From IMG/VR virus record IMGVR_UViG_2563366969_000005: DNA of 30,075 nucleotides; one strand, given 5' to 3'. The position numbers and the translations under genes are program-made. The notes beneath the pieces were generated by a model that saw only the letters and a program-made list of their open reading frames with translations, made no database searches and had not been told where the DNA came from. Within the stretch, counting starts at the first letter, position 1, and each line of letters starts with the position of its first letter. Source of the DNA: a virus. Its lineage: Duplodnaviria; Heunggongvirae; Uroviricota; Caudoviricetes. Of the stretch, positions 4,450-15,923 are shown piece after piece.

Positions 4450-6672
4450 TTGGCTGTTCAATTCGCTTATCCGTGGAACGTCCCACGGTCGGCAATCTCC
4501 AGCCCATACCTTACTTATGAGCAACAGCAAAGCCGCGACCGTATGTTCGCGGCTTTGCTGCATGCAAAAAAGGTGCTTTCTCTCCAGCCCGACTGCGTGC
4601 GGTTAGATGTTTATCGCACTGCTGCGGTGCTGGAACAAAATCAGGGTAGTCAACGAGCCAATGCATTTTTAATCAGCTTCTGCAAAAAGGCATTGCCGCG
4701 TCTTGAACTGGTCGCAAAAAAATACGAATGCGCTGGTATCAACAGCAAGGTATCAACCGCTGTTTTTGGAAGTCATTTTGATACTCAGCAAATGCAATAT
4801 CTGTCGTCACGCATGGTTAATATGGTCGCCCGATATAACCGTCTCCCGGACATGTCGCGCGCTGATGTTGACCTGTTGGCCGCTGATATTGCTAATTTCA
4901 TTCGTGGTGAACTTGCCAACATTAATGACCACGGATTCGGCGAGCTTAAAACGCTGTACACCTGGTATATTCGTGCTGGCTTTATTTCCCTCCAATTCAA
5001 CGTTATCCCACCACATTGGGAGCGGGTTGAAAAAAAATATGTCGGTGCGGATGAAATCGCACCGGCTATCGCCAAAATGTTTAACGATGGGTGGTGGCGC
5101 GGTCTTTTGCGCCGTGTAGCAGCTACGTGGCGCGAACACCTGCAAATTGCAGTCGGCAACGTCAGTAAGAAAAAAAACACTTACGCGAGTAAAAACTGCG
5201 TGACTGACTGGCGTGAACAAAAGCGCCGCACTCGTGAATTTCTCAAAGGTCTGGATCTCGAAGACGAAGACGGCAACCGTATCAGCCTAATTGAAAAATA
5301 TGATGGCTCAGTTGCTAACCCTGCGATTCGCCGCTGTGAGCTCATGACCCGCATTCGTGGGTTTGAAAACATCTGTAATGAGCTCGGTTATGTCGGTGAG
5401 TTTTACACTCTAACCGCGCCGTCAAAATATCACGCCACGACTAAAGCCGGTTACCGTAACAGCAAATGGAGCGGTGCCAGCCCGGCTGACACGCAAAACT
5501 ATCTAACCGGTATCTGGGCGCGTATCCGTGCCAAACTACATCGGGAAGATGTCCGTATTTTCGGTATTCGTGTCGCCGAGCCCCATCACGACGGCACTCC
5601 ACACTGGCACATGCTGATGTTCATGCTGCCGGAAGATGTTGAATATGTTCGCTCCATCGTCCGTAAATACGCATGGAAAGAAGACCGCCACGAACTGAAA
5701 AGCGATAAATCCCAAAAAGCACGTTTCCACGCGGAGTCCATTGACCCGGAGAAAGGCAGCGCAACCGGCTATGTTGCTAAATACATTTCAAAAAATATCG
5801 ACGGTTATGCTCTCGATGGTGAAACCGATGATGAAAGCGGTGAGCTGCTGAAAGAGACAGCCCCCGCCGTTTCAGCATGGGCTGCGCGCTGGCACATCCG
5901 TCAGTTTCAGTTTATTGGTGGTGCGCCGGTGACGGTTTACCGTGAGTTGCGTCGCCTCGCTGATACCGAAACCGCGCACGGTCTGAGCGTTGAGTTTGCC
6001 GCCGTCCATGATGCCGCCGACGCTGGTGACTGGGCTGGTTATGTTAATGCTCAGGGTGGGCCGTTTGTCCGTCGCGATGATTTACAGGTGCGCACACTGT
6101 ATGAACCGCGTACCGAGCTTAATCAGTACGGTGAGGAAACGGTATGTATTAAGGGGGTCTACGATTCCTCCATAGGTGCAGGAAGCCCGATTTTAACCCG
6201 GCTCACTCAGTGGAAGATTGTTCCGAAGCGTGCTGTTGATTTGGCCGTTGACCTTCAGGACGGCAAAGCCGTCCCTCGGAGTTCTGTCAATAACTGTACG
6301 GGAAGCGAAAGCGATCCACCGATACTGGATTTAACAAAACCACTGAGTCGGCGTGAAAGACGAGAATTGACCAACCGACTCAGGAAGCAAAAGCCAGCAG
6401 TACGGCGAAAATTCATCCACGGAACGGATGAGCAAAACGCAGCTATAGCTAAAACTATCGATGAGATACATCTGACAACCGGCATTAATATCAGCCGGGG
6501 CGAAGCCCTGCACCTGATGGCCGGTGGTAAAAGTTGTTTTGATGGTAAATGGCTACGCGGAACGGCCAAAGGAGAAATATTTTCCGCAGCACCATCGCAT
6601 GAGGCTAAAGCTCGGAAAATCCTTAATCGTGTTGCGGCGATGGCTGAAGCATCAAAACCAATACATGAGTAA
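4450..6672 (+). CDS. A: Replication initiation endonuclease gpA (rolling-circle Rep, P2 A-like)
   Basis: 740-aa ORF with an HUH-type motif (PHWHMLMF) and a downstream catalytic tyrosine context (GYVAKYISKN). The start is a TTG at 4450 after a G-run; an in-frame ATG at 4543 is an alternative. Confidence 0.9.
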   Translation: MAVQFAYPWNVPRSAISSPYLTYEQQQSRDRMFAALLHAKKVLSLQPDCVRLDVYRTAAVLEQNQGSQRANAFLISFCKKALPRLELVAKKYECAGINSKVSTAVFGSHFDTQQMQYLSSRMVNMVARYNRLPDMSRADVDLLAADIANFIRGELANINDHGFGELKTLYTWYIRAGFISLQFNVIPPHWERVEKKYVGADEIAPAIAKMFNDGWWRGLLRRVAATWREHLQIAVGNVSKKKNTYASKNCVTDWREQKRRTREFLKGLDLEDEDGNRISLIEKYDGSVANPAIRRCELMTRIRGFENICNELGYVGEFYTLTAPSKYHATTKAGYRNSKWSGASPADTQNYLTGIWARIRAKLHREDVRIFGIRVAEPHHDGTPHWHMLMFMLPEDVEYVRSIVRKYAWKEDRHELKSDKSQKARFHAESIDPEKGSATGYVAKYISKNIDGYALDGETDDESGELLKETAPAVSAWAARWHIRQFQFIGGAPVTVYRELRRLADTETAHGLSVEFAAVHDAADAGDWAGYVNAQGGPFVRRDDLQVRTLYEPRTELNQYGEETVCIKGVYDSSIGAGSPILTRLTQWKIVPKRAVDLAVDLQDGKAVPRSSVNNCTGSESDPPILDLTKPLSRRERRELTNRLRKQKPAVRRKFIHGTDEQNAAIAKTIDEIHLTTGINISRGEALHLMAGGKSCFDGKWLRGTAKGEIFSAAPSHEAKARKILNRVAAMAEASKPIHE

Positions 6673-6746
6673 TTCATATCCATATCATGCACATACAGCA
6701 ATCGCTCTATTCGTATTTTTTCTTCCCATCTTTTGCTAATACGTGC

Positions 6747-6766
6747 TACTGTATAAATATACAGTA
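6747..6766 (+). promoter_or_regulatory. LexA operator (SOS box) overlapping the promoter of the downstream operon
   Basis: tactgtataaatatacagta contains a perfect CTGT-N8-ACAG core (CTGTATAAATATACAG, 6749-6764), palindromic and AT-rich in the centre. A TTGCTA -35-like hexamer lies at 6733-6738. The operon ATG is 20 bp downstream. Confidence 0.8.
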
Positions 6767-6785
6767 ACCCTTTGGGAGGGATTTC

Positions 6786-6968
6786 ATGGTTGGCGAACAT
6801 TTCAGCCGAACGCAGCAAAAGTGGGCTTGTGTGCAATTTATTGCCGAGGTATCTCTGATTACAAACTGCAAGCCATCAGACTTAAAGCTCGCGCTCACTC
6901 TCATTGCAGACCTAGCAAACAGCGAAAATAACGAAACCGAAGATGATAATTTTTATAAGGCTGATTAG
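6786..6968 (+). CDS. Small SOS-operon protein, possible Tum-like antirepressor N-terminal part
   Basis: 60-aa ORF with GGGAGGG upstream, directly after the LexA box. Ends at a TAG that is in frame with the DinI-like gene 3 bp downstream. Confidence 0.5.
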   Translation: MVGEHFSRTQQKWACVQFIAEVSLITNCKPSDLKLALTLIADLANSENNETEDDNFYKAD

Positions 6969-6971
6969 ATT

Positions 6972-7205
6972 ATGAGAATCAATATCACGCTGGATAAAGA
7001 GCAAAAAATTAGTCAGGCAACATTGGATGCACTTGAGGCTGAACTGTACCGCAATCTTCAACCTATTTACCCAAAGACTGCTATCCGAATTCGCAAGGGC
7101 TCCGCTAATGGCGTTGAACTAAGCGGTTTGAAACTGGACGAAGATAAAAAACGAGTAATGGAAATCATGCAGCAGGTATGGGAGGACGATAGCTGGCTGC
7201 ATTAA
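6972..7205 (+). CDS. DinI-like protein (DinI / 186 Tum C-terminal domain family)
   Basis: 77 aa. MRINITLDKEQKISQATLDALEAELYRNLQPIYP...MEIMQQVWEDDSWL aligns by eye with E. coli DinI (MRIEVTIAK...ALAGEL...ISEILQETWE). LexA-box control fits an SOS-induced function. Confidence 0.85.
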   Translation: MRINITLDKEQKISQATLDALEAELYRNLQPIYPKTAIRIRKGSANGVELSGLKLDEDKKRVMEIMQQVWEDDSWLH

Positions 7206-7207
7206 CA

Positions 7208-7276
7208 AACGCCGCCGGTGCTGAAACTTGCTTTCAGTGCTGGCGGGGTTGAACAACTCGCACCGCGAGGCGCTAG
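7208..7276 (+). repeat. Copy 1 of a duplicated ~69-bp element containing a hairpin (7215-7243)
   Basis: aacgccgccggtgctgaaacttgctttcagtgctggcggggttgaacaactcgcaccgcgaggcgctag, immediately after the DinI-like stop. Closely matches the copy at 7613-7681. Confidence 0.7.
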
Positions 7277-7400
7277 TTCTTCCTCTCAAAGTTTCTCGAT
7301 GTTTTATTGGTTACACACCAGTGATGAATGGGACGTTACCTTAGCGGGTTTTATAGTGGCGCTGTGGCAGCACTAAATAAAATTCATTGAGGGCGATAAT

Positions 7401-7610
7401 ATGCATCGACTACCGGGCGAAATTCCGCAGCACAAAACTAAAAGCATCAAACTGATGGCCATCGTTCATCGTCTGCAGCAGATAATGGTCAATGAGAATT
7501 TGACACCCGCCGAGCTGGTCGGGTGTGCCGAAATAGTCAGGGATAATTACGGCACGCTGGATAGCATCAGCAAGCCGACATATTACTCACCGCCACCACG
7601 TCGACCATAG
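7401..7610 (+). CDS. Hypothetical small protein in the SOS operon
   Basis: 69-aa ORF with GAGGG 7 nt upstream of the ATG. Followed directly by repeat copy 2. Confidence 0.5.
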   Translation: MHRLPGEIPQHKTKSIKLMAIVHRLQQIMVNENLTPAELVGCAEIVRDNYGTLDSISKPTYYSPPPRRP

Positions 7611-7612
7611 AT

Positions 7613-7681
7613 AACGCCGCCGGAGCTGAAACTCGATTTCAGGTCTGGCGGGGTTGAACAACGAGCTACGCGAGGCGTTAG
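7613..7681 (+). repeat. Copy 2 of the duplicated ~69-bp hairpin-containing element
   Basis: aacgccgccggagctgaaactcgatttcaggtctggcggggttgaacaacgagctacgcgaggcgttag, immediately after the stop at 7610. Roughly 85 percent identical to copy 1 by eye. Confidence 0.7.
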
Positions 7682-7743
7682 CCGGTCATAGCGTCGCAAA
7701 TACTTCAACCGTCTGCTGGTTAAATAATTCGAGGTTTTTGGAC

Positions 7744-7938
7744 ATGCAAAATCCCCTTTCATCGAAAAATGACCCGTTTGCCGATTGGGCAAAGAATCTG
7801 ACTTTAATGGCTTTAAATAACGATCTGAGCTCTCGCGAGGTGGAAAGCTACACCGCAAAAATGGTCGAGCAGGCCGGTAAAGATGAGCTATCAGTCGTTA
7901 TCAAACACCTGTTAAATCACATCAGAATGCGCAAATAA
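7744..7938 (+). CDS. Hypothetical small protein in the SOS operon
   Basis: ATG 7744 with GAGG 9 nt upstream. The ORF-track version starts at a TTG (7654) inside repeat copy 2 and is judged too long. Confidence 0.45.
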   Translation: MQNPLSSKNDPFADWAKNLTLMALNNDLSSREVESYTAKMVEQAGKDELSVVIKHLLNHIRMRK

Positions 7939-7954
7939 GAGGAACTATATAAAT

Positions 7955-8056
7955 ATGTTATCTCTCGTTTATGAAAATCCGTGGACGACGATTTTTCTGA
8001 TGATTGTCGCCAGCATGTGCCTCAACAGTGTTATTGGCGCATTGCGCGGCCATTAA
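7955..8056 (+). CDS. Possible 33-aa hydrophobic peptide (MLSLVYENPWTTIFLMIVASMCLNSVIGALRGH)
   Basis: Short ORF below the ORF-track cutoff, translated by hand. AAGAGG lies about 12 nt upstream. It ends about 20 bp before a strong intrinsic terminator and has one predicted TM-like segment. Could be fortuitous. Confidence 0.25.
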   Translation: MLSLVYENPWTTIFLMIVASMCLNSVIGALRGH

Positions 8057-8076
8057 TCGCGACAAAACCAGACTAA

Positions 8077-8105
8077 AACCGGCACCCTGAATGCCGGTTT
8101 TTTTA
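8077..8105 (+). terminator. Rho-independent terminator ending the early/SOS transcription unit
   Basis: Stem aaccggca (8077-8084) / tgccggtt (8092-8099) with loop ccctgaa, followed by a run of T (through about 8104). Confidence 0.7.
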
Positions 8106-8264
8106 TGCCATTTTTCCGCGAACTTCCCGTTTTTTAGTCGTGCATGCATCAGGTGCATGGTTTTGCATGCGTCAGTCTTGCCCGTTCTGTCCGTGCGCCG
8201 CCAGAGCTAGCGCGGATCCAGAGTTGTCATGCAACTGCATTAAAACCGACCCATAAAGCGGGCA

Positions 8265-8283
8265 GGCGTGGCGGGGAAAGCAT
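8265..8283 (+). other. cos: cos site (19-nt cohesive-end sequence, 186-type)
   Basis: GGCGTGGCGGGGAAAGCAT. As I recall it this is the 186 cohesive end; P2 is GGCGAGGCGGGGAAAGCAC. It lies between the replication/SOS region and the portal gene, as expected in an integrated P2-family genome. Confidence 0.65.
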
Positions 8284-8502: not shown

Positions 8503-9507
8503 CTAATTTACATGTATGTAGAGTTCACCGTCGCCAGACCAATCGGGACACTCTAAAACAAGCCCAAACTGCTTGAATATTTCATCAATGATTATTGTTA
8601 TCTCCCGAAAATCACCAAAACCTGTAATGTGCTGGTCATTAAACTTCCCATAAAGATTCTGAAAAGCAATGCCTAATTCTGATAATTGATATCTTATATT
8701 TGAGTTGGATAGTGTAAGGGATAGCTTTGGATCGTATTCTTTAATATTGATGTTTAGAGAATGGACATAACCCATCGCATAAGCATAAGAGTTGATGATT
8801 AGCCTGATACGTTTTTTTACTTCGAGATACATGTCATTCAGAGAAATATTACCGTACTTATAACCCCAGATGAGTTTTTCAATCTCGTCAGATACTTCAT
8901 TTACAACAGTGTCAAGATTCTCTAAAAATAAATCGATAGTTTCTTGAGGGGCAGACCCCGAAGACATGTAATTAGCGAGATATTCAGACCATGCACGCGT
9001 GGCTGAGATAAGAAGCGCGCTACCATACTCGTTGACTGTAAAGTTTTGGGCTAAGCATGTTAGTAAGTTTTTTTCATGTACGTGCACTAATTCATGGTGA
9101 ATGCGATGGATGACTGCGAGGTATCCTTCTTCTTTCAGTTTTAAGAAGCTACCATCATTGAAAAGCTCAACAAAAAAATCAATCGATAGCACAAGGGTAT
9201 ATTCTTCACATAGCCCATCATTGCCAATTTTTGTTACTAACTGCCCGACGGCTGCGCCCTGTTTGCTATTGGTAAATGAACTAGGGGATTTGTGTTGGTA
9301 AGAGGATGTTACCTTTTGAAGAGCTTCACTGAAGTTATAGGAAACAATCACGCATTTTAATTTGGAGATATCAAGATTGAGATTTTTTGTTAAAGCTCGG
9401 ATAGCTTCTAGTGTGAAATTACCGATATTATTTGCTTCTTGCTCAGTAGCGAAACCTTCGAGGGTTATTTTAAAATCAGTTTCCAAAATATTAATCTCCG
9501 CGCCCAT
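8503..9507 (-). CDS. AT-rich cargo protein of unknown function with His-rich HExxH motif; candidate anti-phage defence or exclusion gene
   Basis: 334-aa ORF, conspicuously AT-rich against a GC-rich backbone. Contains IHRIHHELVHVHEKN (HELVH is an HExxH pattern in a His cluster). Lies between cos and the portal gene, downstream of Q on the same strand. Weak Shine-Dalgarno. No family recognised. Confidence 0.8.
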   Translation of the reverse strand: MGAEINILETDFKITLEGFATEQEANNIGNFTLEAIRALTKNLNLDISKLKCVIVSYNFSEALQKVTSSYQHKSPSSFTNSKQGAAVGQLVTKIGNDGLCEEYTLVLSIDFFVELFNDGSFLKLKEEGYLAVIHRIHHELVHVHEKNLLTCLAQNFTVNEYGSALLISATRAWSEYLANYMSSGSAPQETIDLFLENLDTVVNEVSDEIEKLIWGYKYGNISLNDMYLEVKKRIRLIINSYAYAMGYVHSLNINIKEYDPKLSLTLSNSNIRYQLSELGIAFQNLYGKFNDQHITGFGDFREITIIIDEIFKQFGLVLECPDWSGDGELYIHVN

Positions 9508-9584: not shown

Positions 9585-10631
9585 TTATTCTGGGTTGTCG
9601 AGGGTGTACTCTTTGAATCTGATGACCTCCATGCCGAGCCAGTCATTTACCTCCCTGAACCTGTCCTGTAGCGGCGACAGCTCGTTGCGCACAAATACCT
9701 TTGCCACCTTCTCAACATCACCGAGTGAACCGATATTCTCGGGCTTGCCGCCCATGAGCTGGAACGGTACGCGGTGCGCGTCCATCAGATCGGCGGCACT
9801 GGCCTTCTTGATGTTGAAAAAGTCATCCTTTGTGGCGACCTCGCTCAGTGGCACGATTTTGATGCCGTCCGGTTTTCCGCCGGGAGCGTAGAAAAACAGG
9901 TTCTTAAAGTTGCCGAGCCCTTTTGAGTTGCGCATCGCCTCGCGCAGCGATTCGACGTCGGTCGCGCTCTGCGCCGGGTCAGTCACATACATGATGTAAC
10001 CCGCGTGCGCGCCGTTCTGATAATACTTGCGGCGGAACAGCGTCGCGGATTCATTCAGCCAGGCGGAATTTAGCGCGCTGAGATATTCGGGCAGGCCGTA
10101 AATCTCCTGATTAATGTCGGGCTCCAGCAGGTGAAACACGGTATCAGGCGCGAACTCGTGCGGCTGGGTGAAGTTTTCCACAAACCAGAAAATCGAATCG
10201 TCGACTCCGCGTCGGGTGTATTTGGCTGGCGAGGCCAGCAGTTTGATTAACTGGCCGGTGACGCTGTGGCGCTGCTCAAGAAAGGCGTTACCGAACACCA
10301 GATAATCGAGCGCAAAGCGGCTGAAATCCTGACGGGATAACAACGGGTGCGGAATGTAGGTGCTCGCGAGCACGTTACGCTTAACATAAATTGGCGAGCT
10401 GTGATGCACGGCAGAGCGCAGGCTCTTTGCCAGCCCTGAGAAGCTGACCGGCGGCTCGTACCATTTGCCGTTACTGATGCACTCGACGTAATCCAGAATG
10501 TCGCGCTTATCGAGTACCGGCACCGGCTCGCCGAAGGTGAACGCTGTCGTTTTTGGCGGTGTGCTGGCGGTCAGTTGTTGTGGTTTGCTGGCCTTTTGTG
10601 CGTTGGCTTTACGGGATTTTTGTTTACCCAT
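9585..10631 (-). CDS. Q: Portal protein (P2 gpQ-like)
   Basis: 348-aa ORF immediately downstream of the large terminase on the same strand, with the size and position of P2 Q. Assigned by synteny and length. Confidence 0.88.
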   Translation of the reverse strand: MGKQKSRKANAQKASKPQQLTASTPPKTTAFTFGEPVPVLDKRDILDYVECISNGKWYEPPVSFSGLAKSLRSAVHHSSPIYVKRNVLASTYIPHPLLSRQDFSRFALDYLVFGNAFLEQRHSVTGQLIKLLASPAKYTRRGVDDSIFWFVENFTQPHEFAPDTVFHLLEPDINQEIYGLPEYLSALNSAWLNESATLFRRKYYQNGAHAGYIMYVTDPAQSATDVESLREAMRNSKGLGNFKNLFFYAPGGKPDGIKIVPLSEVATKDDFFNIKKASAADLMDAHRVPFQLMGGKPENIGSLGDVEKVAKVFVRNELSPLQDRFREVNDWLGMEVIRFKEYTLDNPE

Positions 10632-13498: not shown

Positions 13499-14566
13499 AT
13501 GCGCCCGGAAACCCGTTTTAAGTTCAATGCCTATCTGACCCGCGTCGCTGAGCTGAACGGCATCAGCACTGATGACGTCAGTAAAAAATTCACCGTCGAG
13601 CCGTCCGTCACGCAAACGCTGATGAACAAAGTGCAGGAGTCATCCGCGTTTCTGCAGACGATTAACATTCTGCCGGTCGCAGAAATGAAGGGTGAGAAAA
13701 TCGGCGTCGGTGTGACCGGTACTATCGCCAGCACGACCGACACCTCGGGCGATGATGAGCGTAAGACCGCAGACTTCACCGCGCTTGAGTCCAACAAGTA
13801 CGAGTGCGACCAGATTAACTTTGACTTCCATCTGAAATATAAAACCCTCGACCTGTGGGCGCGTTTTCAGGACTTTCAGCGCCGCATCCGTGACGCCATT
13901 GTTAAGCGTCAGGCGCTCGATTTCATCATGGCCGGTTTTAACGGTACCACCCGCGCCGCCACCTCTGACCGCACCAAAAATCCGATGCTGCAGGATGTAG
14001 CCGTCGGCTGGCTGCAGAAATACCGCAACGAAGCCCCGACGCGTGTGATGAGCAATATCACCGATGCTGACGGTAAGGTCGTTTCGGCAGTGATTCGCGT
14101 CGGTAAAAACGGCGACTATGAGAACCTCGACGCGCTGGTGATGGATGCTACCAACAACCTGATTGACGAGGTTTATCAGGATGACCCGAAACTCGTTGCC
14201 ATCGTTGGCCGTAAGCTGCTGGCCGACAAATATTTCCCACTGGTGAACAAGCCGCAAGAAAACAGCGAAGCGCTCGCGGCAGATATCATCATCAGCCAGA
14301 AGCGAATCGGCAACCTGCCTGCTGTGCGTGTGCCGTACTTCCCGGCGAATGCCGTGTTAGTGACAACGCTGGAAAACCTCTCTATCTATTTCATGGATGA
14401 GAGCCACCGCCGCAGCATTGATGAAAACCCGAAAAAAGACCGCGTGGAAAACTACGAGTCAATGAATATCGACTATGTGGTCGAGGCGTATGCCGCCGGG
14501 TGTCTGCTGGAAAACATCACCCTGGGCGATTTCACCGCACCTGCAGCACCGGAAAGCGGAGAGTAA
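13499..14566 (+). CDS. N: Major capsid protein (P2 gpN-like)
   Basis: 355 aa. MRPETRFKFNAYLTRVAELNGIS...FTVEPSVTQTLMNKVQESS... is closely similar to P2 gpN as I recall it. Confidence 0.93.
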   Translation: MRPETRFKFNAYLTRVAELNGISTDDVSKKFTVEPSVTQTLMNKVQESSAFLQTINILPVAEMKGEKIGVGVTGTIASTTDTSGDDERKTADFTALESNKYECDQINFDFHLKYKTLDLWARFQDFQRRIRDAIVKRQALDFIMAGFNGTTRAATSDRTKNPMLQDVAVGWLQKYRNEAPTRVMSNITDADGKVVSAVIRVGKNGDYENLDALVMDATNNLIDEVYQDDPKLVAIVGRKLLADKYFPLVNKPQENSEALAADIIISQKRIGNLPAVRVPYFPANAVLVTTLENLSIYFMDESHRRSIDENPKKDRVENYESMNIDYVVEAYAAGCLLENITLGDFTAPAAPESGE

Positions 14567-14570
14567 GCCC

Positions 14571-15320
14571 ATGACGAGCCCCGCACAGCGTCACATGATG
14601 CGGGTCTCGGCCTCTCAAGCCGCGCAGCGGGAACAAGCCCCGCTGCGCCATGCAACCGCCTACGAGCAGATGCTGGTAAAGCTGGCCGATGACCGCCGCA
14701 CGTTGAAAACCATCCGTTCAAACGAACTGAAAGCCGCGAAAAAGCGTGAGCTGCTGCCGTTCTATGCGCCGTGGGTCGCCGGTGTGCTGGCTGATGGCCG
14801 TGGTGCGCAGGATGACATTCTGATGACAGTCATGCTGTGGCGTCTCGATGCCGGTGATATCGCTGGCGCGCTGGAAATTGCGCCATACGCGCTGAAGCAC
14901 GGCCTCACCTCTGACTATCGCCGCACGACACCTTACATGCTGGTTGAGGAGGTGGCGCTTGCCGCGCTGCGCCTGCGCGATGCCGGTGAGCCTGTCGACC
15001 TCGCATTACTGCTGACCCCCCTTAGCCTGACCGACGGCGCTGACGTTCCCGATATGGTGCGCGCTCGACTGCATAAGGTGACCGGTCTAACCCTGCGCGA
15101 TGCCGGTCAGAGCGCCGAAGCACTGGCACAGTTTCAGCGCGCGATGCAGCTCGACCGCAATGCCGGTGTGCGCAAAGAGATTGAGCGACTGGAGCGGGCA
15201 TTGAAGCCTAAGCCCGATGCCGCGCCCCGTAAAACGACTAAACCGCGCACGCGCAAACCTGCCACCAAACCGGCGGCAAAGCGCGGGCGTCCACCAAAGG
15301 CGGTAAAAACCGCCGGTTAA
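14571..15320 (+). CDS. M: Terminase small (endonuclease) subunit (P2 gpM-like)
   Basis: ATG at 14571 (MTSPAQRHMMRVSASQ...) with GGAAAGCGGAGAG upstream. The ORF-track 14475 start overlaps the N gene end and is rejected. Pro/Lys/Arg-rich C-terminus typical of gpM. Confidence 0.9.
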   Translation: MTSPAQRHMMRVSASQAAQREQAPLRHATAYEQMLVKLADDRRTLKTIRSNELKAAKKRELLPFYAPWVAGVLADGRGAQDDILMTVMLWRLDAGDIAGALEIAPYALKHGLTSDYRRTTPYMLVEEVALAALRLRDAGEPVDLALLLTPLSLTDGADVPDMVRARLHKVTGLTLRDAGQSAEALAQFQRAMQLDRNAGVRKEIERLERALKPKPDAAPRKTTKPRTRKPATKPAAKRGRPPKAVKTAG

Positions 15321-15335
15321 CTGAACGCTCCCCGA

Positions 15336-15385
15336 GCCGGTCGCCGTCAGGGTCAAAGCGGGTTTTGACCCTGACGGCGACCGGC
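15336..15385 (+). other. Perfect 22-bp inverted repeat (stem-loop) between M and L
   Basis: gccggtcgccgtcagggtcaaa (15336-15357) and tttgaccctgacggcgaccggc (15364-15385) are exact reverse complements, with a 6-nt loop. No U-tract follows on either strand, so it is not a canonical intrinsic terminator. Confidence 0.6.
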
Positions 15386-15413: not shown

Positions 15414-15923
15414 ATGACGACAGTAATACTGAATCAGCCCGACGAACCGCAGGACGTACCGGGCGTGGTGATTCCCGCACCGGAGACGGGCGACGCAGTG
15501 ATTAAAAACACGTTCTTTTTCCCTGATGTGGATCCGAAGCGGGTGCGCGAGCTGATGCGCCTTGAGCAGACGGTTTCCGATGCGCGCCTGCGCAACGCCA
15601 TCAAGACCGGCATGGCGGAAACCAATGCGGAGCTTTACGACTACCGGCTGCGCCAGATTGCCGCAGGGTTTAAGACACTGGCCGACGTGCCTGACGCCGA
15701 GGAAATCGACGGCGAGAATGTGCGCGTTTTCCACTACCTCAGCGCCGTGACGGCGATGGCGACCGCCACCCTGTATGAGCGTTATCGCGGGGTTGAGGCC
15801 ACCGGCAAGGGTGACAAAAAAGCCGACAGCGTCGAAACCACCATTGATGACCTGTGGCGGGATATGCGCTGGTCGGTCTCGCGCCTGCAGGATAAGCCGC
15901 GCTGTATCGTGGGTCAGCTCTGA
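15414..15923 (+). CDS. L: Head completion/stabilisation protein (P2 gpL-like)
   Basis: 169-aa ORF after M with GAGG upstream. Position and size match gpL. Confidence 0.85.
   Translation: MTTVILNQPDEPQDVPGVVIPAPETGDAVIKNTFFFPDVDPKRVRELMRLEQTVSDARLRNAIKTGMAETNAELYDYRLRQIAAGFKTLADVPDAEEIDGENVRVFHYLSAVTAMATATLYERYRGVEATGKGDKKADSVETTIDDLWRDMRWSVSRLQDKPRCIVGQL

Follow-up and report, generated by a model that had tools for sequence, protein, structure and literature searches.

A conserved stem-loop at gene 3′ ends and module boundaries downstream of gene A in P2-like phages and prophages

The stretch of viral DNA analysed here, 30,075 nucleotides long (IMG/VR record IMGVR_UViG_2563366969_000005; this whole stretch is called the window below), is a 186/PSP3-like prophage of the genus Eganvirus (Peduoviridae). 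Downstream of its replication gene A, two consecutive small genes are each followed, on the plus strand, by a copy of the same 69-bp element, at positions 7208–7276 and 7613–7681. This element is a previously uncatalogued, phage-family-specific stem-loop of gene 3′ ends and, at the same time, a repeat of module boundaries. Selection on its plus-strand, single-stranded structure is real, and its structure, strand, distribution and behaviour as a recombination joint are well supported. Its function is proposed more tentatively: the explanation which we favour, at slightly less than even confidence, is that of a putative cis-acting, structured plus-strand RNA which punctuates the rightward operons downstream of gene A, at the 3′ end of their final gene or genes. 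In phages of the 186/PSP3 type, the operon punctuated in this way would most likely be the SOS operon; in those of the P2 type, it would be the early operon.

The two copies had been noticed in an earlier reading of the sequence (hereafter the original prediction) as near-identical repeats. The repeat is indeed real and forms a single two-copy family, with a spacing of 405 nt, but "near-identical" is generous for an identity of 86% (59 of 69 positions). A degenerate 47-nt pattern of the element matches these two copies and nothing else within the window, for an expectation of zero derived from 100 shuffles. Each copy starts, as had been stated, 3 nt past the last base of a stop codon: the TAA at 7203–7205 which ends the DinI/TumB-like gene on the plus strand of the open reading frame (ORF) list, 2 nt separating this stop from the element, and the plus-strand TAG at 7608–7610 which ends the orf37-like gene. 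The proposed 12-bp stem is correct but incomplete, since the helix comprises 15 bp and can be extended by an AAC/GUU pairing. The compensatory change seen between the copies (U-G in copy 1, A-U in copy 2) also stands, but the adjoining G-U pair of copy 1 becomes a G·G mismatch in copy 2, which had been overlooked and appears in the fold as a 1×1 internal loop. Four features had been missed altogether, namely a second mini-hairpin, a conserved 3′ tail, a role at the joints of mosaic modules and a wide distribution.

The consensus organization, as read from sets of 60 and 85 distinct copies, runs from 5′ to 3′ as follows: stop codon, two unspecified nucleotides, AAC, a variable base, hairpin P1, a variable base, GUU, the linker GAACAA, mini-hairpin P2 (not to be confused with phage P2) and the terminal GCGUUAG. 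Similarity between copies ends directly past UUAG. P1 is a hairpin of 15–18 bp with a G+C-rich base, a top always made of an A-run paired to a U-run, and a loop which is mostly CUYGY. The three AAC/GUU pairs hardly vary or do not vary at all, being present in 60/60, 57/60 and 54/60 copies. The P2 mini-hairpin has 5 bp and the form C(GA or UC)GC-N3-5-GCGAG. It exists in two states, CUCGC/GCGAG, with Watson-Crick pairs throughout, and CGAGC/GCGAG, where the two middle positions would form tandem G·A pairs, a stable non-canonical motif. Both states are found inside otherwise identical lineages, an intermediate CUAGC is also seen, and one inner P2 pair is compensated in locus L203 (GAGU...ACGAG). 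Support for the P2 mini-hairpin is moderate.

Copy 1 was delimited by the repeat search and scores 91.8 bits (E=1e-21) with the R1 covariance model of the family. Its P1 hairpin covers 7208–7250 on the plus strand, with AAC at 7208–7210 facing GUU at 7248–7250, a 15-bp stem (7212–7226 with 7232–7246) holding three G-U pairs, and the loop CUUGC at 7227–7231. The single-stranded linker GAACAA follows at 7251–7256, in columns at least 90% conserved in the gene-A-anchored alignment A3. It leads to the P2 mini-hairpin in its Watson-Crick form (7257–7269, CUCGC-ACC-GCGAG in the fold) and to the 3′ end GCGCUAG at 7270–7276, for a family consensus of GCGUUAG; similarity to relatives and homology blocks stop at this last base. 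Copy 2, found by repeat search and fold and scored at 91.1 bits by the same model, is laid out identically on the plus strand: P1 at 7613–7655 (stem 7617–7631 with 7637–7651, including the G·G mismatch, and loop CUCGA), linker at 7656–7661, P2 in its tandem G·A form at 7662–7674 (CGAGC-UAC-GCGAG) and GCGUUAG at 7675–7681.

Several additional features were considered and set aside. The tail first looked much more conserved than P1, which is an artefact of retrieving copies through a tail pattern; both are equally conserved (0.82 and 0.80) in the gene-A-anchored set. A closing helix AACGCC/GGCGTT around the whole element shows no covariation, its 5′ side varying (AACCCC, AACGTC, AACCGC) while the 3′ side stays GGCGTT. 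A pseudoknot between the CUYGY loop of P1 and GCGAG would fit the C/U variation, but the frequent CUGGY and CUAGC loops give mismatches, GCGAG is near-invariant, and this pairing competes with the P2 mini-hairpin. A coding function or read-through extension was rejected on the grounds that indels between copies are not multiples of 3 and that changes compensate stems rather than follow codons. No sigma-70 promoter was found inside the element by a promoter scan, which shows no promoter-like hexamers, and within the window no site complementary to the tail was found beyond the tail's own opposite strand.

That pairing favours the plus strand, as first claimed, is confirmed by folding: the plus-strand RNAs of copies 1 and 2 reach −35.5 and −30.6 kcal/mol (z-score about −4.0, a value equalled by none of 200 shuffles), for −25.3 (z −1.5) and −22.5 kcal/mol (z −2.4) on the much weaker minus strands. 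Selection on this structure had been suggested from the two copies; it is now supported by a covariation across homologues that goes far beyond what two copies could show. A covariance-model search across P2/186-like loci had been proposed as a check, and it recovered the family, with a conserved stem and compensatory changes. In 60 distinct copies, 93.8% of the P1 cells are paired, 11 of the 18 pairs change on both sides, and 79 cells are compensatory, for 16.5 in shuffles (none of 500 reaching 79); when partners are slid by 1–3 columns, about 40% only remain paired. A second set of 85 distinct copies came from loci retrieved through the A protein only, and not through the element sequence. 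It gives 95% paired P1 cells and 73 compensatory cells versus 15, in an alignment which was fitted to the covariance model and thus favours structure somewhat. Some copies, such as those of L183, L008 and L108, have entirely different stems and yet the same tail. As for the strand, P1 contains 186 G·U cells for 21 A·C cells, and the plus strand folds better in 107 of 115 copies (mean −22.7 versus −15.8 kcal/mol). The selected structure is therefore that of the plus strand in single-stranded form. Folding with DNA parameters is asymmetric between strands as well, the plus strand giving −21.2 and −24.4 kcal/mol (z −4.3 and −5.9).

The element belongs to a family which extends over several enterobacterial hosts. 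A BLAST search with 83 nt detected it in 66 phage records, from Escherichia, Salmonella, Yersinia, Klebsiella and Erwinia. Among complete E. coli genomes, 452 of 5,426 carry it, in one or two places each, 486 of these 490 places being chromosomal. A scan of genome contigs with a 17-nt pattern returned mostly chance matches, the real ones being a Citrobacter locus and an Enterobacteriaceae metagenome-assembled genome. All loci whose surroundings were inspected are P2-like phages or prophages. Phage 186 has one copy, directly behind orf97 and 24 nt ahead of the annotated terminator t95b; PSP3, SW9 and SEN1 have two copies apiece, and the P2-type phages Wphi and P2-EC58 a single one ahead of the variable cargo. 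The R1 model was then run on 160 loci fetched through the A protein only (80 of 186 type and 80 of P2 type), and the element is present in about 50 and 36 of them, respectively. All hits of at least 45 bits lie on the gene A strand, the minus-strand hits being weak (at most 37 bits) and overlapping plus-strand copies; in 186-type loci, copies are located 0.5–2.3 kb downstream of the end of gene A. At gathering thresholds, Rfam 15 has no match in the whole window, and at E≤10 its sole match within 7150–7750 is a spurious miRNA (19 bits for a threshold of 52).

A second constant of the family is its position at gene ends. Three mutually unrelated gene families are commonly found upstream: DinI/Tum-like genes in 43 distinct contexts, orf37-like genes in 43 and genes similar to 186 orf97 in 26. 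In most contexts of all three families, a TAA, TAG or TGA stop lies 2 nt ahead of AAC, and the orf97 group has an additional in-frame TAA two codons earlier. P2-type prophages have, from left to right, A, DUF3850 (orf91), an orf37-like gene, the element, variable cargo and the portal gene, the element thus lying directly behind the last conserved early gene. The hotspot which Rousset et al. 2022 (PMC9122126) described is therefore marked, in these prophages, by the element at its left border. One part of the original prediction, in which a motif segmenting the SOS operon transcript was among the options, is not supported as it stood: P2-type prophages have no SOS operon and carry the element at the end of their early operon, and it is not an SOS-operon feature. 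The activities suggested there (RNase processing, stabilisation, retroregulation or protein binding) would all be compatible with the anatomy. Downstream contexts vary. An intrinsic terminator follows within 200 nt in only 30 of 144 distinct contexts, and a convergent ORF of at least 100 aa ends within 150 nt in 33 of them, 27 of which have no intrinsic terminator within 200 nt. The stop codon of the convergent ORF is the TTA of the terminal GTTAG in 15 of these 33 contexts; the element can therefore sit flush between convergent genes. In L170, L186, L189 and L197, a second LexA box (CTGTATGCATATACAG; CTGTATATACGAACTGT in L186) lies about 45 nt past the element, followed by a Shine-Dalgarno sequence and an ATG; an extra gene, predicted to be SOS-controlled, begins there right behind the element.

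Analyses of the flanking sequences show that the element is also a joint at which modules are exchanged. Pairs of elements with unrelated flanks (150 nt upstream, 80 nt downstream) remain about 80% identical in P1 and tail, for an aligner baseline of about 0.53. A sequence of about 70 nt kept in otherwise unrelated contexts is therefore a homology patch at the DNA level. Endpoints of homology blocks, which are not mutually independent, fall within 10 nt of the element 3.3-fold more often than expected (7.6% versus 2.3%), and the blocks of the phage BLAST end at query positions 506/509, 577 and 982/983, that is, at the element edges. Locus L134 corresponds to L129 minus a 405-bp unit (the orf37-like gene and one element), and the one element that it retains is chimeric between copies 1 and 2, hence a recombination between direct repeats which deleted the intervening gene. 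Units made of orf37 plus element, or orf97 plus element, are present in 186-type as well as P2-type genomes. Recombination within this patch is shown to lead to the exchange, loss or gain of the modules next to it.

How might such an element act in the punctuation of transcripts? Upon transcription of the plus strand, P1 (15–18 bp) would form directly behind the stop codon and would be a barrier to 3′-to-5′ exonucleases, the linker GUUGAACAA between P1 and the P2 mini-hairpin being a possible processing site. The 3′ end and the stability of the upstream cistron's mRNA would be fixed in this way where no intrinsic terminator follows, and this cistron would be uncoupled from downstream sequence. 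P1 may also damp translation of the upstream ORF, because it begins within the footprint of the terminating ribosome. The element also doubles as a portable stretch of homology through which modules are exchanged. Its layout, in which a short single-stranded linker joins a strong 3′ hairpin to a small 5′ hairpin, is the one to be expected of an intercistronic processing or insulating site, by analogy with the RNase III sites between T7 early genes.

Comparable stable hairpins devoid of a U-tract have been described behind genes at Rho-dependent 3′ ends, where they protect against polynucleotide phosphorylase (PNPase) and RNase II, a block proposed to define a precise steady-state 3′ end (PMC6061677). 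The element shares this feature, a stable hairpin without U-tract just downstream of a gene. In contrast to these individual stem-loops, which come with Rho-utilization (rut) sites, it forms a repeated family that travels between genomes and, in addition to its first hairpin, has a conserved linker, the P2 mini-hairpin and a 3′ motif. Over the 80 nt downstream, no rut-like excess of C over G was found (the mean skew is −0.04, and 40% of the 80 contexts have a positive value), and the full Rho-dependent 3′-end architecture is therefore lacking; copy 1 alone has a pyrimidine-rich stretch downstream (UUCUUCCUCUC).

Other repeated hairpins of transcripts come to mind. Repetitive extragenic palindromic (REP) sequences and the bacterial interspersed mosaic elements (BIMEs) are transcribed imperfect palindromes in 3′ untranslated regions or between cistrons, which stabilise upstream mRNA and are substrates of recombination; Newbury 1987 is among the sources on them, and a REP within about 15 nt of a stop codon reportedly lowers translation of the upstream gene (Liang and Deutscher 2015). 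The element resembles them as a repeated, imperfectly palindromic sequence at gene 3′ ends and a recombination substrate. REPs, on the other hand, are about 35 nt long and carry a GTAG head; chromosomes contain hundreds of them, in either orientation, and REP-associated tyrosine (RAYT) transposases are linked to them. The element has about 70 nt, AAC at its 5′ end and no GTAG, and exists in one or two copies per genome, in P2-like prophages only and in one orientation. The RNase III sites of the T7 early genes are likewise repeated intercistronic hairpins of similar sequence, which cut the polycistronic transcript into units with a protective 3′ hairpin. They differ by an internal loop and by stems totalling about 20 bp or more, P1 being a near-perfect helix of 15–18 bp.

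Some observations weigh against a punctuating RNA. The conserved linker, the P2 mini-hairpin and GCGUUAG are surplus to a simple exonuclease barrier, and the absence of downstream C-over-G skew has been mentioned. Plus-strand RNA and displaced plus-strand DNA are inseparable by folding. Roughly one third to one half of close relatives, as well as phage P2 itself, do not carry the element, and decayed copies exist at L166 (7609–7657), L208 (7620–7668), L373 (6317–6382) and L384 (8622–8687). The hairpin is deleted in L166 and L208, the P2 mini-hairpin in L373, and the tail has diverged in L188 and L344. These decayed copies and the relatives devoid of the element indicate that it is dispensable, and it can be lost piecemeal. 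In some of the decayed copies, a precise deletion has removed the top of P1 (AACGCCGCCGGTG|TTGAAAAAC...).

The alternative that survives best, while being unlikely, is a non-canonical plus-strand attenuator, terminator or pause site, where P1 would stall or release the polymerase in spite of the missing U-tract, perhaps together with Rho, NusA or NusG, or with another factor recruited by the conserved tail. The element takes the place of the partial terminator t95a behind the DinI-like tum of phage 186 (NC_001317). The 3′ foot of t95a (CAUGGGGUUG, then UUUUG) resembles that of P1 (GGCGGGGUUG), both being G-rich and that of t95a ending in GGGGUUG, and in L205 a P1-like hairpin with the same apical sequence has a T-run instead of the tail. 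Many contexts also have no other terminator ahead of a convergent gene, and a GG-N8-C|G motif can be read in the sequence 11 nt past the core stem of P1, in agreement with the pause consensus (G−10/Y−1/G+1), probably by coincidence; the putative +1 G is moreover a U in the CUCGC variants, copy 1 included. Intrinsic terminators share the G+C-rich hairpin (a 15-bp stem of −30 to −35 kcal/mol in the element), but what follows here on the plus strand is GAACAAC. The original prediction was thus right that no U-tract follows and that this is not a canonical intrinsic terminator, and 97 of 136 copies have no U in the 9 nt past the hairpin. The hairpin of the element is longer than that of t95a, an ordinary partial intrinsic terminator consisting of a short hairpin and a U-tract, and GAACAAC stands in place of the U residues. 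In the window, two more genes come after copy 2 before the first canonical terminator; the p95 transcript of 186 is annotated to end at t95b, downstream of the element; and rut-like skew is absent downstream.

Behind DinI/Tum-like genes, an ordinary terminator replaces the element in L205 (5352–5386) and L001 (1205–1236, t95a of 186). The L205 hairpin has the same apical sequence as variants of P1 (GAAAACTGGTTTTTC), with a T-run where the tail would be, and the foot of t95a ends in GGGGTTG, as does that of P1. These shared apical and foot sequences are a hint that the element and these terminators could be evolutionarily related.

It is also rather unlikely that the element is primarily a recombination module at the DNA level, either a conserved linker or a folded single-strand recombinase site like attC of integrons, with RNA playing no part. 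The homology islands and breakpoints described above, the loss of a gene-plus-element unit through direct repeats and the location at the left border of the P2 defence hotspot all agree with it. Short conserved intergenic sequences at module borders, some of them stem-loops, provide homology for shuffling accessory genes, as in the boundary sequences of mosaic phages and the promoter early stem-loops (PeSLs) of T4-type phages; Susskind and Botstein 1978, Clark 2001 and Arbiol 2010 are reports on this subject. The element is likewise a short conserved sequence between unrelated modules with breakpoints at its edges, but PeSLs are found at gene 5′ ends with a promoter, and the element at 3′ ends, flush with the stop codon, with RNA-type covariation and no promoter-like hexamers. 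Plain homologous recombination, moreover, needs neither a hairpin nor a strand bias, yet compensatory changes are observed, with a 9:1 preference of G·U over A·C.

The likeness to attC is closer at first sight. These sites lie directly behind the stop codon of a mobile ORF, as strand-biased hairpins conserved in structure and variable in sequence, which are closed by AAC/GTT triplets. The element also has a strand-specific hairpin closed by AAC/GTT directly 3′ of an ORF, its stop 2 nt upstream, and GTTGAAC, in the position of R′, fits the attC core GTTRRRY. In contrast, the 4 nt before AAC (ACAA, GCAA, AGAT, AGAG ...) are neither RYYY nor complementary to GAAC, so that only AAC and GTT pair and the 7-bp R″/R′ complementarity is absent; no conserved extrahelical bases are seen in P1 alignments. 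There is no attI, and instead of arrays of diverse cassettes there are mainly three upstream gene families and one or two copies per genome. The annotations of the phage records list no integron integrase downstream of gene A, no search beyond these annotations having been made, and none is known in these phages.

A minus-strand or bidirectional intrinsic terminator, which would keep leftward transcripts of convergent cargo genes from continuing as antisense RNA through the early or SOS operon, is improbable. It would explain why the stop codon abuts the hairpin, because the minus-strand hairpin is followed by GUU and a U-rich stretch (the complement of AAC, the two unspecified nucleotides and the stop codon), 95 of 136 copies having at least 4 U among the 9 nt that follow. 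The 33 contexts with a convergent ORF end within 150 nt, often inside GTTAG, would be in keeping with such a function. It is on the plus strand, however, that pairing is selected, each plus-strand G·U becoming a C·A mismatch in the moderately U-rich minus strand, which folds weakly (the z-scores of −1.5 and −2.4 given above). In addition, most contexts (85 of 144) lack both a convergent ORF of at least 100 aa ending within 150 nt and, within 200 nt, an intrinsic terminator, and the terminator scan called the element on neither strand.

Equally improbable is a portable "cassette-end" module, a folded plus-strand signal which a specific phage or host factor would read through the linker, the P2 mini-hairpin and GCGUUAG, and which would both insulate transcripts at module borders and actively target recombination to the left border of the anti-phage hotspot. 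Such a module would correspond in function to an attC site, with no integron integrase involved, and RecBCD entering from cos might assist through the Chi-like GCTGGCGG. This octamer lies in the 3′ arm of P1 in copy 1 (7239–7246) and in most E. coli and Salmonella copies, one mismatch away from Chi (GCTGGTGG); copy 2 has TCTGGCGG. RecBCD arriving from the cos end, which lies 1 kb to the right, would meet the octamer in the active orientation. The terminal GGCGTTAG of the tail (7269–7276 and 7674–7681) matches the operon polarity suppressor (ops) sequence of RfaH (GGCGGTAGnnTG, on the non-template strand) at 7 of 8 positions. The mismatch falls on G5, an important base of ops, and the next nnTG is not conserved, since conservation stops past TTAG. 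The proximity to the ops core (GGCGGTAG, one base away, G5 to T) is probably coincidental.

Least probable is a single-stranded DNA signal on the plus strand displaced during rolling-circle replication from the gene A origin, for example a site for lagging-strand priming or helicase loading: the element is always on the gene A strand (0.5–2.3 kb past the end of gene A in 186-type loci, P2-type hits being on the same strand), folds well as DNA on the plus strand only and is dispensable, as are the single-strand origins of rolling-circle plasmids, but it is absent from P2, the model for B-dependent lagging-strand synthesis, and from a third to a half of relatives, it shows no similarity to the origin nick region that holds in both P2 and 186, a fixed offset from a stop codon and two copies per genome are unexpected for a priming site, and three G·T mismatches are costly in a 15-bp DNA stem. 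A similarity of the tail to the nick region of the gene A origin was also rejected, the 7-mer CGCCTCG being common to P2 only and not to 186.

Taken together, the element acts like a REP, a protective stem-loop or a boundary sequence but lacks the defining features of REPs, attC, ops and intrinsic terminators, and it is filed as a gene-end stem-loop and boundary repeat, with RNA punctuation as its tentative function. No description of it was found in the searchable literature, nor was the tail sequence in the literature searched, and an earlier mention of a stem-loop at this border may exist in older Stockholm papers. Two studies of the P2 hotspot do not describe it: the text of PMC13586616 does not contain "hairpin", "stem-loop" or "terminator", and that of PMC9122126 contains neither "stem-loop" nor "intergenic", its two mentions of "repeat" and single mention of "conserved sequence" concerning other things. 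The "site-specific recombination" of Nilsson refers, according to a review, to inverted repeats around the fun gene, at a different locus (PMC8987985).

In the window, the element belongs to a locus bounded on the left by gene A (4450–6672) and on the right by the 186-type cohesive end cos (GGCGTGGCGGGGAAAGCAT, 8265–8283, plus strand), which is the right-hand limit of the variable region. The region carrying the two copies is 100% identical to a prophage in E. coli Res13-Sevr-PER07-33, and positions 6700–8150 are about 92% identical to Salmonella phages SW9 and SI22 (BLAST against phages). A LexA box, CTGTATAAATATACAG, is recognized by its sequence at 6749–6764 (plus strand), its phage 186 counterpart being annotated as the p95 LexA site, and the SOS promoter containing it presumably transcribes both copies of the element. 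It is followed by a tumA-like ORF (6786–6968), the DinI/TumB-like gene (6972–7205, plus strand, Pfam DinI E=7e-24), copy 1, the orf37-like gene (7401–7610, plus strand, 69 aa, phrog_11386, function unknown), copy 2 and two small ORFs (7744–7938 and 7955–8056). The first canonical intrinsic terminator past copy 2, a hairpin with a T-run, is located at 8075–8101, 394 nt further; the scan called it on the minus strand, and a plus-strand T-run also follows the same hairpin. The second small ORF encodes 33 strongly hydrophobic residues (MLSLVYENPWTTIFLMIVASMCLNSVIGALRGH) directly before this bidirectional terminator, which ends the SOS operon, and could be a small membrane peptide or toxin, as predicted from its sequence.

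Two observations concern the region beyond cos. A minus-strand ORF of 334 aa (8503–9507, phrog_11743, function unknown, no Pfam match) lies between cos and the portal gene (9585–10631) and is cargo on the far side of cos. In the late-gene region, a perfect 22-bp inverted repeat (CCGGTCGCCGTCAGGGTCAAAG ... TTTTGACCCTGACGGCGACCGG, 15336–15385) occupies the 93-nt gap between the plus-strand ORFs 14475–15320 and 15414–15923. Its folding energies are −50.7 kcal/mol for the plus strand and −58.2 kcal/mol for the minus strand, with z-scores of about −6; it is not followed by a U-tract and has an A/T-rich top, as in P1.

P2-like prophages are very common in enterobacteria. Between their gene A and cos lies a recognised hotspot, in which anti-phage systems replace one another at a high rate through a mechanism stated as unknown (PMC9122126, PMC13586616). 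In the P2-type prophages which carry it (about 36 of 80 loci), the element is a precise, conserved landmark of the left border of this hotspot. It offers a concrete homology patch of 70 bp, at which exchange and the gain or loss of gene units demonstrably occur. It is also a new covarying RNA motif outside Rfam, with a testable prediction on the formation or insulation of mRNA 3′ ends. Its interest would be higher if the conserved tail recruits a factor or directs the exchange of cargo at the defence hotspot. Should the tail bind a factor, the element would be a new regulatory device; otherwise, it would still be of use in annotation and as a candidate for a natural insulator part.

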